DNA of 64,000 nt from Escherichia coli. GTDB taxonomy: Bacteria; Pseudomonadota; Gammaproteobacteria; Enterobacterales; Enterobacteriaceae. Positions 41,555 through 64,000 of this stretch are shown piece by piece; position 1 is the stretch's first letter, and each line of letters starts with the position of its first letter. The DNA is taken from the NCBI RefSeq assembly GCF_024223415.1, contig NZ_CP100500.1; one strand, given 5' to 3'. The notes beneath the pieces are model-generated. The model was not told where the DNA came from and did not search any database. It was given only the letters and a program-made list of their open reading frames with translations. A program made the translations under genes and the position numbers.

Positions 41555-43327
41555 TCAGTTATTCTCAGCCTTCTTCACAACCTGAATGCTCAGCTCAGCC
41601 AGTGCAGTCGGGTTAGCAAAGCTCGGTGCTTCAGTCATCAGACACGCTGCCGCCGTGGTTTTCGGGAAGGCGATAACGTCACGGATATTGTCGGTGCCGG
41701 TCAGCAGCATGGTCAGACGGTCAAGACCGAATGCCAGACCTGCGTGCGGCGGAGTACCGTATTTCAGAGCGTCGAGCAGGAAGCCGAATTTCTCGCGCTG
41801 TTCCTCTTCGTTGATACCCAGAATACCAAACACCGTCTGCTGCATATCACCATTATGGATACGTACTGAACCACCGCCCACTTCGTAACCATTGATGACC
41901 ATATCGTAAGCGTTCGCCACCGCATTTTCCGGTGCAGCTTTCAGCTCTGCAGCCGTCATGTCTTTCGGTGAGGTGAACGGATGGTGCATTGCCGTCAGGC
42001 CGCCTTCACCGTCGTCTTCAAACATCGGGAAGTCGATAACCCACAGCGGTGCCCATTTGCTTTCGTCGGTCAGACCAAGGTCTTTACCCACTTTCAGGCG
42101 CAGTGCGCCCATCGCGTCGGCAACAATTTTCTTGTTATCGGCACCGAAGAAAATCATATCGCCATCTTGCGCGGCAGTACGATCCAGGATGGCTTCGATG
42201 ATTTCTGCATTAAGGAACTTCGCTACCGGGCTGTTGATACCTTCCAGACCTTTCGCGCGTTCGTTAACTTTGATGTAAGCCAGACCTTTCGCGCCGTAGA
42301 TTTTAACGAAGTTACCGTATTCGTCGATCTGCTTACGGGTCAGCGATGCGCCACCCGGAACACGCAGAGCGGCAACGCGACCTTTCGGATCGTTCGCCGG
42401 ACCTGCAAATACTGCAAACTCAACAGATTTCAGCAGATCAGCAACGTCGGTCAGTTCCATCGGGTTACGCAGATCCGGTTTATCAGAACCATAACGGCGT
42501 TCGGCTTCCGCAAAGGTCATTACCGGGAAATCGCCCAGATCCACGCCCTTCACTTCCAGCCACAGATGGCGCACCAGCGCTTCCATCACTTCACGCACTT
42601 GCGGCGCGGTCATGAAAGAAGTTTCCACATCGATCTGAGTAAATTCAGGCTGACGATCAGCGCGCAGGTCTTCGTCACGGAAGCATTTAACGATCTGATA
42701 GTAGCGGTCAAAGCCGGACATCATCAGCAGCTGTTTGAACAACTGCGGGGATTGTGGCAGCGCGTAGAATTTACCTTTGTGCACACGAGAAGGCACCAGG
42801 TAGTCACGCGCGCCTTCCGGCGTGGCTTTGGTCAGCATCGGAGTTTCGATGTCGAGGAAGCCGTGGTCATCCATAAAACGGCGCACCAGGCTGGTGATTT
42901 TAGCGCGGGTTTTCAGGCGCTGAGCCATTTCCGGGCGACGCAGGTCGAGGTAGCGGTATTTCAGACGCGCTTCTTCGGTGTTGACGTGGTTAGAGTCAAG
43001 CGGCAGAACATCTGCGCGGTTGATGATAGTCAGCGAGGACGCCAGCACTTCGATTTCGCCGGTCGCCATATCGCGGTTAATATTTTTTTCGTCACGCGCA
43101 CGTACGGTGCCCGTGACCTGAATGCAGAACTCATTACGCAGTTCAGAGGCCAGCTTTAACGCGTCCGCACGATCCGGATCGAAAAATACCTGCACGATAC
43201 CTTCGCGGTCGCGCATATCGATGAAGATCAGGCTACCAAGATCACGACGACGGTTGACCCAACCACACAGAGTCACCTGCTGCCCCACGTGGGACAAACG
43301 GAGCTGTCCACAATATTCTGTACGCAT
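41555..43327 (-). CDS. aspS: aspartate--tRNA ligase
   Basis: 590-aa class II aaRS. Confidence 0.97.
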
Positions 43328-43636
43328 GAGATATCCCTTAACTTAGCTGCCGGCGGATGCCCCCTGCTGCGCAGGTGACCAAGTCGCAGCGTTAGCTGTA
43401 TGTCACAACTGAATGAAAAAAGGCGGCTATTATACTGGAAATTCTGCCGCACCGTAAGAGCCTGGCCCGCGCTGGAACGCCTCGTTACCACTTTATATCG
43501 GGCCTGAAATCAGACTCTACGCCAGTTTGCTATAAAGGTGTTGCCCGAACTCATAAAAATTAACAAAATTTGTCGTTCCGCCATCGGCTAATCGCATTAA
43601 GGTGTGAGGCACGATTTTGTTTTTTCAGGAGTCATT

Positions 43637-44203
43637 ATGCTTGAACTTAATGCTAAAACCACTGCGCTGGTGGTGATCGATTTACAAGAAGGCATCTTAC
43701 CTTTTGCCGGTGGTCCACATACTGCCGATGAGGTAGTTAATCGCGCCGGGAAGCTGGCGGCGAAATTTCGCGCCAGCGGTCAGCCCGTGTTTCTGGTGCG
43801 AGTTGGCTGGTCTGCCGATTACGCCGAAGCATTAAAACAGCCGGTTGATGCCCCCTCCCCCGCTAAAGTGTTGCCCGAAAACTGGTGGCAACATCCAGCT
43901 GTATTAGGTGCAACTGACAGTGATATCGAAATCATCAAACGTCAGTGGGGTGCGTTTTACGGTACGGATCTGGAGTTGCAATTACGCCGCCGAGGTATCG
44001 ATACAATAGTGTTATGTGGGATCTCGACCAATATCGGTGTTGAATCCACCGCCCGCAATGCCTGGGAACTTGGCTTTAATCTGGTGATTGCCGAAGACGC
44101 CTGTAGTGCCGCCAGCGCCGAGCAACACAATAACAGCATTAATCATATCTACCCGCGCATCGCCCGTGTGCGTAGCGTGGAAGAGATCCTTCACGCGTTA
44201 TGA
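43637..44203 (+). CDS. yecD: isochorismatase-family hydrolase YecD
   Basis: 188-aa product from [17 protein letters not shown]; the ORF track begins at an upstream GTG. Confidence 0.88.
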
Positions 44204-44310
44204 TTTACATCGGTCTACCGCAATGGTCGCATCCTAAATGGGTGCGGTTGGGGATCACCAGCCTTGAAGAGTATGCCCGCCACTTTAACTGCGTGATACG
44301 GGATTTTTAA
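44200..44310 (+). pseudogene. yecE: yecE 5' fragment, disrupted by prophage insertion
   Basis: Reads [32 protein letters not shown], then diverges from K-12 yecE and stops after 5 more codons; AT-rich phage-like DNA follows. Confidence 0.8.
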
Positions 44311-44411
44311 AAATCACTAAAGAACGCCCAAGAGCATGAGTTTTCTTTAGCATAATCAAAGCGTTGAATTTCCATGCCATATGAAAATCGGCAAAGTTCA
44401 TATGTAACAAA

Positions 44412-44471
44412 GTGTCCCAATCATGCCCCAAATTGCCCCACAACAGACATTTTTGCCCCATGCATGCCCCA
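44412..44471. repeat. phased direct repeats of TG(C/T)CCCA near the prophage-host junction
   Basis: Five copies (TGTCCCA, TGCCCCA x4) starting at 44413, 44424, 44434, 44454, 44465, spaced at ~10-bp multiples. Confidence 0.6.
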
Positions 44472-44492
44472 AAAAATCACTTTCCCTCACCC

Positions 44493-44542
44493 TTGACACT
44501 GTTTATCCATACAGTTAAAAATAATACTGTATACAAACACAG
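44493..44542 (+). promoter_or_regulatory. putative SOS-regulated promoter of phage dinI: -35 TTGACA with two LexA-box-like palindromes
   Basis: TTGACA at 44493-44498; CTGTTTATCCATACAG at 44499-44514; CTGTATACAAACACAG at 44527-44542; both fit CTGT-N8-ACAG. Confidence 0.6.
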
Positions 44543-44557
44543 TGTAGAGGGATTTTT

Positions 44558-44806
44558 ATGCGTATTGAAATCTGTATCGCTAAAGAAAAATTCAGCAAAA
44601 TGCCAAAAGGCTCTGTACCTGCTCTACAACAGGAAATGTCTCGCCGTATCAGAAAACAATACGACGATGTGGAGGTTATAGTAAAATCCGCCAGTAATGA
44701 CGGACTGACCATTTTAAGAGCCGTAGATAAAGAAAACGCTCAGAAGTTCATACAGGAAACGCTGCAGGAAGTCTGGGAAACTGCTGATGACTGGTTTTTT
44801 CACTAA
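44558..44806 (+). CDS. DinI-family DNA-damage-inducible protein (prophage-encoded)
   Basis: 82-aa [22 protein letters not shown]...[16 protein letters not shown], resembling DinI incl. C-terminal acidic WExADDWF motif; good SD (AGAGGG). Confidence 0.8.
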
Positions 44807-44873
44807 TCAGGACGTCAAATAAATAACAACTGTAATTATTCTCTCCAAATTAACAATCTCTGTATACATACTC

Positions 44874-44910
44874 AGGCGTGTTCACGCATACAACACGCCT
44901 TTCTGATATT
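44874..44910 (+). terminator. intrinsic terminator downstream of dinI-like gene
   Basis: AGGCGTGTT-cacgcatac-AACACGCCT followed by TTCTGATATTT. Confidence 0.55.
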
Positions 44911-45189: not shown

Positions 45190-45645
45190 TTATTCAACAC
45201 CTGAATCCCCCGCAGCTTCTCTCCCCTTTATAAAACGCCCCTTCCGGAATCCAGACCGCTGCAGTGCACGACGAAGATGACCGTATACCGTCTTGTCATT
45301 CTGCCCCGTCTCTTCTGTAATCTCCGCAATACTTAAACCTCTGTAATACCGGTTCAGTACCGCTCTGCGCTCTTCCAGCGTCAACACACCTCCGGCCGCT
45401 CTCAGATTCAGCATCGACTTATTCAGAATACAGCAGGCCTCTCCGGTAAAAAGAATACGAACAATATCTGTATACTCATCATCACAGAATACAAAATAAT
45501 ATCTGAATGACCTGCCTGACTGCACCCTTCTTCTGTCTGATATGGCATCTTCTATATATCTGATTCGACTGCTTACGGTTCCAAATATCTCTCGCAGGGC
45601 TTTTTCAAAATAAATATCTCTCGTCGCCAGGATTATATCCAGCAT
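45190..45645 (-). CDS. LuxR/GerE-type HTH transcriptional regulator (prophage accessory)
   Basis: 151-aa ORF; C-terminal LTLEERRAVLNRYYRGLSIAEITEETGQNDKTVYGHLRRALQR fits the GerE/LuxR HTH pattern; Arg codons almost all AGA/AGG/CGA and frequent ATA Ile. Confidence 0.6.
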   Translation of the reverse strand: MLDIILATRDIYFEKALREIFGTVSSRIRYIEDAISDRRRVQSGRSFRYYFVFCDDEYTDIVRILFTGEACCILNKSMLNLRAAGGVLTLEERRAVLNRYYRGLSIAEITEETGQNDKTVYGHLRRALQRSGFRKGRFIKGREAAGDSGVE

Positions 45646-45661
45646 CTCTGTACCTCATTAT

Positions 45662-45682
45662 ATCCCGGGGGACTCCCCCGGG
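45662..45682. other. GC-rich hairpin between eib-like gene and regulator
   Basis: TCCCGGGGG-ACT-CCCCCGGGA, 9-bp perfect stem, no U-tract. Confidence 0.5.
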
Positions 45683-45705
45683 ACAGATATCTAAATCCTG
45701 ACCTG

Positions 45706-46833
45706 TCAGAACTCAAAATTCACACCAGCATTCCACGATGCGGATGACCCACCTGCAGCAACTGCAACTTTTCCTGCCACATTCTCTGTGAAACGGTAGC
45801 CCACGCCCACCGCAATGGCCTGCTCATCACGGTAACCACCAACGGCTGCTGTCGCGTTAAATTTTCCAACACTGTATGGCTGGAAAAGACCGGCCAGTGC
45901 CGCGCTCTGGGCTGCACTCTCCCTTAACTCCTTCCGGTTCTCTTTAATCTGCTCCTGCATATTATTCATTCTCTCTGTCGCCATCTTCTGCCAGGCTTCC
46001 GTCAAATCCAGACGATGACTGTTATTCCTTATCGCTGCTGTATTTGAGGCTATTGCTGCATCCGTCTGCGCCCTGTTCTTCACAAGCACATCGCTGAGAT
46101 GTTCTGCCTGGCTTTTCACCTCGTTACGGACAGTACGCACACTGCTGTCTGTATATGTACGCGTCTCGTCCAGAACATCCGACTTCACCGCATCCGTGTA
46201 TTCCTGCGCAGAAGCCCTGGCAGCTGTAATATTACCGTTAAGTCTGTTTTCTGCCGATTCCACTCGACTCTTAGCATCAGCAACAGCATCACGGTAGACA
46301 GCTCCTATCTCACCGCGCAGGGCATCCCCCGACTCCCGTACAGCATCTGCAATGGCGTTGTCCATCTGTCCTTTTGTGGCCGCATCACTATCCTTAACAC
46401 CATCTGAAACATTTATAATCCGGCGGGTTTCCGGTGCACCATCAACTGAAAATCCATATCCTGAAGGACCGGCCCCTACAGAAAGTACATTGCTTTCTCC
46501 ATTCACCTGAGAGCCATACCCCAGAGCGACACTGTTGTCTGCATTAAAAACAGCTGTATTATTTCCCACAGCCATGGATTTATCCGCATCCCAAATTATT
46601 GCATCGGAACCAACAGCAAAGTTTTTTCCAGTAACACTACCATCACTGTTAAAATTTCCATTTCTGTCAACCACAGTTGCACTTTCAAGTGAATGAGTGC
46701 CATTATCAATCCAGATAATACCCGTCGATGACTCAGTAAGTGTTTTATGAGCCAAAGCCTGAGATGAGAGCAGCAGGGCCACACTCACTGCCAGCGCGCT
46801 TTTCTTTAAAAAAGCATCACGTCTTTTAAGCAT
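45706..46833 (-). CDS. trimeric autotransporter adhesin, Eib-like (E. coli immunoglobulin-binding protein family) candidate
   Basis: 375-aa product from MLKRRDAFLKKSALAVSVALLLSSQALA (signal peptide; SD AGGAG 9 nt upstream); coiled-coil stalk; C-terminal YadA-like anchor ...WNAGVNFEF; Eib genes are known prophage cargo; the ORF track extends 18 codons upstream. Confidence 0.7.
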   Translation of the reverse strand: MLKRRDAFLKKSALAVSVALLLSSQALAHKTLTESSTGIIWIDNGTHSLESATVVDRNGNFNSDGSVTGKNFAVGSDAIIWDADKSMAVGNNTAVFNADNSVALGYGSQVNGESNVLSVGAGPSGYGFSVDGAPETRRIINVSDGVKDSDAATKGQMDNAIADAVRESGDALRGEIGAVYRDAVADAKSRVESAENRLNGNITAARASAQEYTDAVKSDVLDETRTYTDSSVRTVRNEVKSQAEHLSDVLVKNRAQTDAAIASNTAAIRNNSHRLDLTEAWQKMATERMNNMQEQIKENRKELRESAAQSAALAGLFQPYSVGKFNATAAVGGYRDEQAIAVGVGYRFTENVAGKVAVAAGGSSASWNAGVNFEF

Positions 46834-47181
46834 TCTGTTATTCTCCTGTATTATTACTTCACCAGCCAGAACGGTAGTGCGGAGCAAAAATACAGTGATA
46901 AGAATCCTCTTTTATTAATTTAATAATATCAGGAATATTATTGTGTATAATATGCGCCCTCAATTTAAGCAGCAGAAAAGCAATGACGCGAAAATCATTA
47001 AAATACATAAAGATAAAACATCATAACTATAATTATAATAAGCGCGCTTATTTTAGCATCTGAACATTTAAAGTACTGCTATCACAAAACAATAAAAATC
47101 CTGGGTAATATCTCTGATGATTGAATGAGAAATTCACGATGTCTGGTGAGAATTCTGTTCAAAACGAGGAATGCAGACGTA

Positions 47182-63349: not shown

Positions 63350-64000
63350 TTATTTCACCTGTACCACCACAAACTCATCCGGGTCCGGCAACACCATCAG
63401 CGGCGCGGACTGCGTCATGGTAAATTCACGGGCGGGATCCCCCACCGTCAGCCAGTGTTTCGGATAACGGGAAGAGGCCACCACTCCTTCAGACAACGCC
63501 TGTGCATCCTGAATGGCACCGTAACAACGGATCCCATCTGCAGCAGTATTCCCCAGGACCAGCGTGCCGTCTGGCAGATAACGTTTTTCGGTACCGTCCT
63601 CTGCCACATAAGACGTTTTCGCCACCACAATGGCCAGATCACCGTAATACCCTTTGAAAGACACCACCGCCCCCAGGTCTTTCACTGCCGTTTCGAGTTG
63701 CGAATTTGAACCGCGACGGGTATCCAGTTTTTCGCGGAACAGCTTAAAACCATTCAGCAGACGCCAGACGGTACCGTCCATAATGGCAATATTCACAAGG
63801 CCGCTGGCCTGGTCGCAGTAGAGGTCAATATCATGCGCAGGATCGAACGTGTCACGATCGTGCTCAGACCATTTTTTACCACTGGCCTGCGTAATGTTAT
63901 TCTTCGTCGACCTGCCAAAATCGACCTCAATTTTCTCGAACTGGTCTCCTTCCATGGTGTATTTGCCATACAGCACGGCATTTACCGCCTGCATTTCTTC
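63350..64000 (-). CDS. E: major capsid protein E (C-terminal part; gene continues beyond window end)
   Basis: 214-aa partial ORF ...AVNAVLYGKYTMEGDQFEKIEVDFGRST...PDEFVVVQVK at the lambda E position. Confidence 0.9.
   Translation of the reverse strand, partial: EEMQAVNAVLYGKYTMEGDQFEKIEVDFGRSTKNNITQASGKKWSEHDRDTFDPAHDIDLYCDQASGLVNIAIMDGTVWRLLNGFKLFREKLDTRRGSNSQLETAVKDLGAVVSFKGYYGDLAIVVAKTSYVAEDGTEKRYLPDGTLVLGNTAADGIRCYGAIQDAQALSEGVVASSRYPKHWLTVGDPAREFTMTQSAPLMVLPDPDEFVVVQVK

Follow-up and report, generated by a model that had tools for sequence, protein, structure and literature searches.

Paired TGYCCCA repeats as probable arm-type integrase sites in the attR of a P27-type lambdoid prophage in yecE

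Arm-type integrase sites are textbook knowledge for phage lambda, whose attP carries them as P1, P2 and P'1–P'3. The locus described here resembles lambda attP in that short direct repeats lie in both arms of a ~270-bp attP and are distinct from the core, adjacent copies are spaced by about one helical turn, and a candidate IHF site, matching the consensus, lies between arm and core; like lambda Int, the integrase is predicted to have an N-terminal three-stranded DNA-binding domain. It differs from lambda in its motif, TGYCCCA, in an arm-binding domain of a different Pfam family (PF12167), in a layout that on sequence grounds consists of strict 11-bp pairs in a single orientation with a minimal set of two plus two sites, and in having the P' pair inside the int coding sequence. 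The E. coli prophage KplE1/HK620 offers another parallel, since the arm-type sites of its integrase IntS also lie beside a gene's regulatory or coding region; they reportedly overlap the intS promoter and mediate autoregulation. There, however, the integrase and the attachment site are different, and in the present case it is the 3' coding end of int that the P' pair overlaps. In phage phiCTX, whose record (AB008550) notes 'R1, R2 repeats', 7-mer pairs 11 bp apart likewise flank the attP core, and its Int, a distant relative (35% identity), has the same kind of N-terminal domain. The phiCTX motif is GTTCCCA, however, with a span of 173 bp against ~208 bp here, both pairs lie outside the int ORF, and the core is the 3' end of a tRNA-Ser gene.

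At the protein level, Smyshlyaev et al. 2021 (PMC8138268) assigned the PF12167/DUF3596 'putative integrases' of an Stx2a phage, Gifsy-2 and BPP-1 to the IntBPP-1 subgroup of arm-binding tyrosine recombinases, and the Int of the present prophage type carries the same domain; the portion of that paper considered here classifies proteins, and arm sites do not figure in its account. In the literature searched, we found no published description of the TGYCCCA motif and no binding or recombination study of this integrase family, and a search by motif string returned only papers on phiC31 attP. The kind of element is known, while the motif and layout for the PF12167 family appear to be undescribed in that literature. 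PF12167-type integrases are carried by most Shiga-toxin phages (P27, 933W and the Sakai phages) and by many Klebsiella and Enterobacter phages.

The whole stretch of DNA analysed, here called the window, comprises 64,000 nucleotides of an Escherichia coli genome. Its host part includes aspS (41555–43327, minus strand) and yecD (43604–44203), followed by the first 95 bp of yecE (44201–44295, plus strand), which begin at the overlap with the yecD stop, are identical to K-12 yecE and are cut by the prophage; the same remnant is a partial CDS in the PGAP annotation of E. coli TUM1886. By alignment, identity with the uninterrupted K-12 yecE stops at 44295 and phage DNA starts at 44296. From there to the end of the window runs the late end of a lambdoid prophage, with a dinI-like gene, an HTH gene, a YadA/Eib-like gene, tail fibres, J and a tape-measure gene in this order from the junction. 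The int end of the prophage lies beyond position 64000, and the other junction was therefore studied in relatives. Aligning the window with K-12 yecE and both ends of PhiR49_2 placed the segment common to attB and phage, TTAACTG(C/T)GTG, at 44285–44295 (TTAACTGCGTG in the window), which is attR by the lambda/P27 convention; the P27 record AJ298298 annotates the same 11 bp as attR. Inverted symmetry suggests that core-type sites GCCCGCCAC (44275–44283) and GTGATACGG (44293–44301) flank a 9-bp spacer, and this putative core, GCCCGCCAC-TTTAACTGC-GTGATACGG, is unrelated to the arm motif. The C/T difference between attR (TTAACTGCGTG) and attL (TTAACTGTGTG) was considered as a marker of the crossover position and dropped, because a strain polymorphism in yecE or attP could be its cause.

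The sequence-only reading had described five copies of TG(C/T)CCCA near this junction, lying on one face of the helix. All five are present on the plus strand at the coordinates it gave, as TGTCCCA at 44413–44419 (predicted site 1) and TGCCCCA at 44424–44430, 44434–44440, 44454–44460 and 44465–44471 (predicted sites 2 to 5). They lie 118–176 bp inside phage DNA, with the junction where that reading had assumed it to be. Consecutive copies are 11, 10, 20 and 11 bp apart, and the offsets from the first copy (0, 11, 21, 41 and 52 bp) are all within ~1 bp of multiples of 10.5, so that they do face the same side of the helix. Outside the cluster, the 64-kb window has 16 further matches, both strands counted. 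Five matches within 60 bp have a chance probability of ~3e-9 by a Poisson estimate, and in 200 Markov-1 random 64-kb sequences, built on the window's own dinucleotide transitions, the largest cluster had two matches per 60 bp. Moreover, two occurrences of TGYCCCA-N4-TGYCCCA were counted in the window, where 0.01 would be expected. The cluster is better described as two 11-bp pairs, a proximal one formed by sites 1 and 2 (44413–44430) and a distal one formed by sites 4 and 5 (44454–44471), together with one extra copy, site 3.

To assess conservation, nine yecE-type arms were aligned, namely those of the window, TUM1886, PhiR49_2, P27, three other E. coli genomes, the CharmingMan attP and a copy in phi80. 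Sites 1, 2 and 5 are invariant, and site 4 is nearly so, reading TG[C/T]CCC[A/G] in 9/9 arms, while the DNA between and around the sites is mostly variable. Site 3 is the least conserved; it is CGTCCCG in P27 and CGTCCTA in CharmingMan and is deleted in the phi80 fossil, and it is therefore probably dispensable. The P27 arm diverges completely directly after site 5. Considered as a case of decay without selection, the phi80 copy, in which four motif copies survive, speaks neither for nor against the sites. Several ORFs have been annotated or are possible across the arm-site region, namely 'L58' of P27 (L100, AJ298298, 700–876), a 5'-extended 'DinI' in CharmingMan (L006, 2628–3083) and a 58-aa ORF on the minus strand of the window (44285–44461); these calls are probably spurious.

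The integrase belonging to such an arm can be read in close relatives. The 800-bp stretch over the junction (44100–44900) is 98% identical to TUM1886, and the arm at 44286–44560 matches the end of PhiR49_2 at 94% identity and P-EibC at 93%. At their far ends, TUM1886 and PhiR49_2 encode a 437-aa tyrosine integrase and a 78-aa excisionase of the DUF1233 family. As identified by Pfam, this integrase has a separate N-terminal arm-binding-type domain, Arm-DNA-bind_2 (PF12167; residues 7–70, E 1e-23), followed by Phage_integrase. It is 95.6% identical to phiP27 Int and 68–79% identical to the Ints of Klebsiella phages, phi297-type yecE phages, VT1-Sakai/BP-4795 and the 933W type, the range for 933W/Sakai-type Ints being 68–76%. 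A sequence search of solved structures with Int matched the core-binding/catalytic part alone, with none to the N-terminal domain, and a fold model was used for the latter for this reason; the AlphaFold model of residues 1–85 (pLDDT 82.6) shows a helix against which a sheet of three strands packs. The int gene of the present prophage is located beyond the window, and it is these close relatives that would tie the repeats seen here to a PF12167 integrase.

The motif recurs at the other junction, a pattern consistent with the earlier suggestion of integrase binding. Specifically, the int-proximal junction of TUM1886 contains two TGTCCCA copies 11 bp apart (L005, 4595 and 4606), ~75–100 bp from the core, and that of PhiR49_2 contains TGTCCCA and TGCCCCA, also 11 bp apart (L001, 78 and 89); in both, the pair points the same way as the five copies beside dinI. 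Other phages that integrate in yecE likewise have the motif in both arms, and so do relatives whose cores differ; the two comparisons put forward by the sequence-only reading thus both came out in favour of arm-type sites. The repeated motif is thereby found in both att arms and outside the core in the attR of the window, the attL of TUM1886 and PhiR49_2, and seven intact attPs. We consider it likely that the five copies are arm-type integrase sites belonging to the P (int-distal) arm of a lambdoid prophage of the P27 type that has inserted into yecE, here as part of attR. Among the arguments for this assignment are the recurrence in both arms, the N-terminal arm-binding domain of the relatives' Int, and the co-variation of motif and domain.

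The seven intact attPs are those of CharmingMan, Klebsiella phage Mulock, phi330, phi315, IdasGreatGrand, Enterobacter phage CobraSix, and HannyBb, whose Ints are 60–85% identical to the P27 type and which have different cores or hosts; the Int of phi330 is of the VT1-Sakai/BP-4795 type and that of phi315 of the 933W type. Both ends of a phi297-type yecE prophage (Stx2_12E129_yecE) were compared as well, as an attL/attR set. All eight sets have, at the 3' end of int, two TGYCCCA copies with 11-bp spacing, and on the other side of the core at least one further pair, or a triple, with unchanged orientation. Measured from the first P' site, the first P site lies 210 bp away in the TUM1886 composite, 209 bp in CharmingMan, 207 bp in Mulock and in HannyBb, 211 bp in phi315, 208 bp in IdasGreatGrand and in CobraSix, and 206 bp in the phi297-type phage. 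In phi330 the separation is 226 bp; its record includes a 20-bp core segment repeated in tandem, which would extend a distance of ~206 bp to this value. The duplicated segment, CCTGTCACGTTACGCGCGTG (L008, PV189401, ~2527–2566), may be real or an assembly artefact.

The DNA between the P' and P pairs is unrelated or partly conserved, with one short block kept, and phages that share the arm motif differ in core. The phi297-type phage occupies the same position in yecE as P27 and has a P arm nearly identical to that of phi330 (yehV-type), which indicates that the arms behave as a module separable from the core. Six phages have the minimal set of two sites per arm, and a second P pair is added in the P27-type, CharmingMan and phi315 arms. 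In Yersinia phage YP3 (L092, 3454–4628), the P' pair is present in int, and the 1.1 kb downstream of it, with a different gene and a gin invertase, contain no TGYCCCA pair; the attP of this phage may have been rearranged or may not function.

The P' pair lies inside the last int codons (…YVPMM(S/P)H…), where TUM1886 and PhiR49_2 show a single difference, Ser to Pro, at the C/T position within the motif. In a scan of IMG/VR with the Int protein, 80/80 loci encoding a P27-type Int had exactly one P' pair, always at one position near the 3' end of int, with no further pair in the rest of the locus; as these loci are 95–100% identical and mostly cut at the int stop, the figure counts the P' pair and does not measure diversity. 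When ten Ints were aligned, 38 columns had an identical four-fold-degenerate amino acid, and the third base was invariant in 3/38 of these. Two of the three are prolines (CCA and CCC) inside the P' pair, and the base directly after the P' motif varies freely, a pattern that establishes a DNA-level constraint on the int-embedded pair. In KT1 and phiCTX, Int ends ~20–25 residues earlier and the P' pair follows the stop codon, which marks the pair as a DNA element and no by-product of coding. By this comparison, the int ORF of the enteric phages simply reads through the pair. The enteric members have a C-terminal extension of 20–25 residues that KT1 and phiCTX lack (alignment A3, columns ~436–462); in it the P' arm sites (…FAPSMPH…) are translated together with the stretch leading to the core, and it varies from one att type to another.

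More distant integrases show how the motif varies with the protein. TGYCCCA is found wherever the arm-binding domain is 71–100% identical. The N-terminal domains of pAEv1818, KT1 and phiCTX are more divergent (31–40% identical in alignment A4; 35–47% over the tblastn-matched stretch), and in all three the 11-bp pairs are kept on both sides of the core despite a changed motif. Aeromonas pAEv1818 has CGCCCCA and TGCCCCA on both sides, with a span across the core of 208 bp; Pseudomonas KT1 has TGCCCTA/TACCCTA and two copies of TGCCCTA, with a span of 207 bp around a tRNA-like core; and phiCTX has two copies of its motif on each side of the annotated attP. A blind detector, defined as an 11-bp pair plus a second pair and given no knowledge of the motif, recovered the sites of Mulock, pAEv1818, KT1 and phiCTX. 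No such pattern was returned for Ralstonia YO375_1, Klebsiella Kp4866-6, Burkholderia phiBt-TXDOH, Pseudomonas MR15 and Yersinia YP3. By eye only, repeat pairs were seen on both sides of the core in MR15 (TCAGCAAC) and phiBt-TXDOH (GCTGKCA), and in YO375_1 and Kp4866-6 the DNA after the tRNA core is apparently host or other-element DNA; YO375_1, Kp4866-6, phiBt-TXDOH and MR15 were all left out of the evidence. Together, the alignments establish the co-variation, and as far as they reach, motif specificity follows the arm-binding domain of the integrase.

The same comparison bears on whether the repeats recruit a host DNA-binding or DNA-bending protein, instead of or besides being bound by the arm domain of Int. 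It ties the motif to the integrase family and is silent on which protein touches the DNA, which leaves some room for such a factor. However, the motif differs between KT1 and phiCTX, although both are Pseudomonas phages, and it follows the N-terminal domain of Int and not the host genus. A dedicated arm-binding-type domain in Int would moreover be without a target, and we know of no E. coli factor with a TGYCCCA motif. We regard recruitment of a host protein as very unlikely.

The sequence-only reading had offered operators for the adjacent dinI promoter as its alternative. The dinI-like gene (44558–44806, plus strand) encodes 82 amino acids (Pfam DinI, E 1.8e-19), and its promoter, which is no part of the att site, has by a promoter scan and direct reading a –35 hexamer TTGACA at 44493–44498 and two LexA-box-like CTGT-N8-ACAG sequences at 44499–44514 and 44527–44542, all on the plus strand, as in an SOS-type dinI promoter. 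The two LexA-box-like sequences bracket the –10 region, and the promoter module is common, almost base for base, to phages with unrelated integrases. An operator or upstream-element function for the repeats would suit the short distance of 22 bp from the end of the last copy to the –35 hexamer, and the 7+4+7 tandem geometry resembles the tandem boxes bound by OmpR/PhoB-type regulators. The comparative evidence speaks against it from both sides, however. Phage mEp460 has an identical –35 hexamer, LexA boxes and dinI directly after the stop codon of an Rci-type integrase and no TGYCCCA nearby, and many phages match the promoter part (44489–44560) only, without the repeats. Conversely, P27, where no dinI promoter follows site 5, and phi315, IdasGreatGrand, Mulock and CobraSix have the repeats without a downstream dinI. 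The second pair inside int would also be left unexplained. The operator alternative is therefore extremely improbable, with the promoter occurring unchanged without repeats and the repeats occurring without dinI in P27, the 933W type and others. On these comparisons, the repeats travel with the integrase and not with dinI, and those in the window are best assigned to the att module and not to dinI regulation.

Besides the repeats, the P arm contains other conserved elements. Just inside the arm lies the block TTTTAAAAATCACTAAAGAACGCCCAAGAGCA (44305–44336, plus strand), a candidate accessory-factor site with one variable position only across the nine yecE-type arms; it is recognisable as AAGATCGYCCARGAGC in the attPs of Mulock, phi330, phi315, IdasGreatGrand and CobraSix, which have other cores, and is absent in either form from that of HannyBb. 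A second inverted repeat, CTAAAGAA-N18-TTCTTTAG (44317–44350), overlaps the block with its left arm. A candidate IHF site, AATCAAAGCGTTG (44354–44366, plus strand), perfectly matches the consensus WATCAANNNNTTR, and it is as a consensus match that it is listed here. Its position is kept in the yecE-type relatives of the nine-arm alignment; in KY204 the consensus is kept with three of the four N positions changed, and P27, CharmingMan and phi80 have one mismatch each. In Mulock, the sole other att type inspected, by eye, the consensus was not found at the equivalent place.

The first of the inverted repeats, CATATGAA-N11-TTCATATG, had been noted from the sequence alone with the right sequence and spacing and the wrong place: instead of 44366–44392, it occupies 44378–44404 (arms at 44378–44385 and 44397–44404), 12 bp to the right. 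It is a candidate site for a dimeric accessory protein, either Xis or a host factor. Its arms are kept while the spacer varies in CharmingMan and phi80, and in P27 the two arms are altered in a matching way (CATACG…CGTATG). Given the weak stem and the lack of an RNA signal, this matched change fits a symmetric protein site better than a hairpin, and we treat the repeat as a candidate of that kind. A structured RNA or sib/tI-like retroregulator was rejected, since the arm has no Rfam match at E<=1, RNA folding of 44296–44480 was no better than that of shuffled sequences (z –1.37), and the arm contains no terminator-like site.

These elements matter for another possibility, that the TGYCCCA repeats are themselves binding sites of the DUF1233 excisionase, a recombination directionality factor, and that excision is directed by a phased nucleoprotein array formed on them in the P arm. 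In other phages the excisionase binds to phased direct repeats located in a single arm, as lambda Xis does; the DUF1233 Xis gene adjoins int in these phages, and KT1 has a small Xis-like ORF upstream of int. However, sites of directionality factors are typically confined to one arm, and the present motif occurs in both with a fixed geometry across the core. The P-arm repeats are also the element furthest from the core, and P2-like phiCTX keeps its pairs on both sides with no excisionase annotated beside int. The motif tracks the divergence of the Int N-terminal domain, and the conserved sequences at 44305–44336 and 44378–44404 remain free to serve as Xis sites; both are obvious candidates for excisionase or host-factor binding. 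Excisionase binding to the repeats is accordingly judged unlikely.

If the repeats are arm-type sites, a mechanism can be outlined by analogy with lambda, from which we infer Int binding, the role of IHF and the distinct use of sites in integration and excision. The phage Int would be heterobivalent, as lambda Int is, with its N-terminal three-stranded-sheet domain (PF12167) binding the 7-bp sites and its core-binding and catalytic domains acting at the core, ~120–180 bp away from the arm sites. An IHF-type bend at the consensus match 44354–44366 would join arm and core. The sites would work as tandem pairs 11 bp apart (44413/44424 and 44454/44465), and these pairs would cooperate with their counterpart in the opposite arm, which lies within the 3' end of int at the far junction. 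Two sites per arm would provide one for each subunit of an Int tetramer. In excision, an Int tetramer together with the DUF1233 excisionase would bridge the arm sites of attR and the pair of attL. The second P pair may be used differently in integration and excision, in the manner of lambda P1 and P2.

A more general proposition is that all PF12167-type (IntBPP-1) phage Ints share one intasome blueprint, with exchangeable arms, cross-talk and a recognition code; we give it slightly less than an even chance. It may extend to the Ints of P27, 933W/VT2-Sakai, VT1-Sakai and phi297-type Stx phages. The blueprint may consist of tandem 7-bp sites 11 bp apart in each arm, in one orientation and ~208 bp apart across the core, with the P' pair of enteric phages possibly written into Int's own C-terminal codons and the arms possibly acting as modules that phages with different cores can exchange. 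Prophages residing together in one EHEC genome would in that case have arm sites in common, so that the Int and Xis of one could hinder or help the excision of another, and such cross-talk between co-resident Stx prophages through common arm sites becomes testable. The natural variants TGCCCCA, TGCCCTA and GTTCCCA would, if this holds, constitute a readable recognition code for the arm-binding domain; the reading of GC-rich 7-mers by a three-stranded domain and the DNA-level constraint on the C-terminal tail of int are likewise made testable. In practical terms, the motif and the ~208-bp span could be used to define a minimal attP (~270–300 bp) for integration vectors, and the motif and pair geometry for precise calling of prophage ends.

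Additional observations concern the surroundings of the junction. Next to dinI, the minus strand of the window at 45190–46887 encodes a 151-aa HTH protein ('sigma factor-like' in TUM1886) and a 393-aa protein with a YadA C-terminal domain; this region matches the P-EibC immunoglobulin-binding prophage region of ECOR-9 and represents prophage cargo. At the int-proximal junction of TUM1886 (L005, 3797–4567 and 4549–5862), PGAP annotates a 256-aa yecE (DUF72) whose start overlaps the last int codons, so that the prophage may supply a replacement 5' end and may thereby leave yecE expressible. Finally, phi80 (L002, JX871397, 2900–3190) contains a fossil attR of a yecE-type phage, ~1.2 kb from phi80's own attP. 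Preserved in it are the 3' end of yecD and the 5' fragment of yecE, together with the core, the conserved block, the inverted repeat and four of the TGYCCCA copies; dinL comes next, and the phi80 record annotates only a DUF72 pseudogene here. This arrangement implies that an ancestor took up the yecE junction by aberrant excision or recombination, and mEp237 matches the same stretch.
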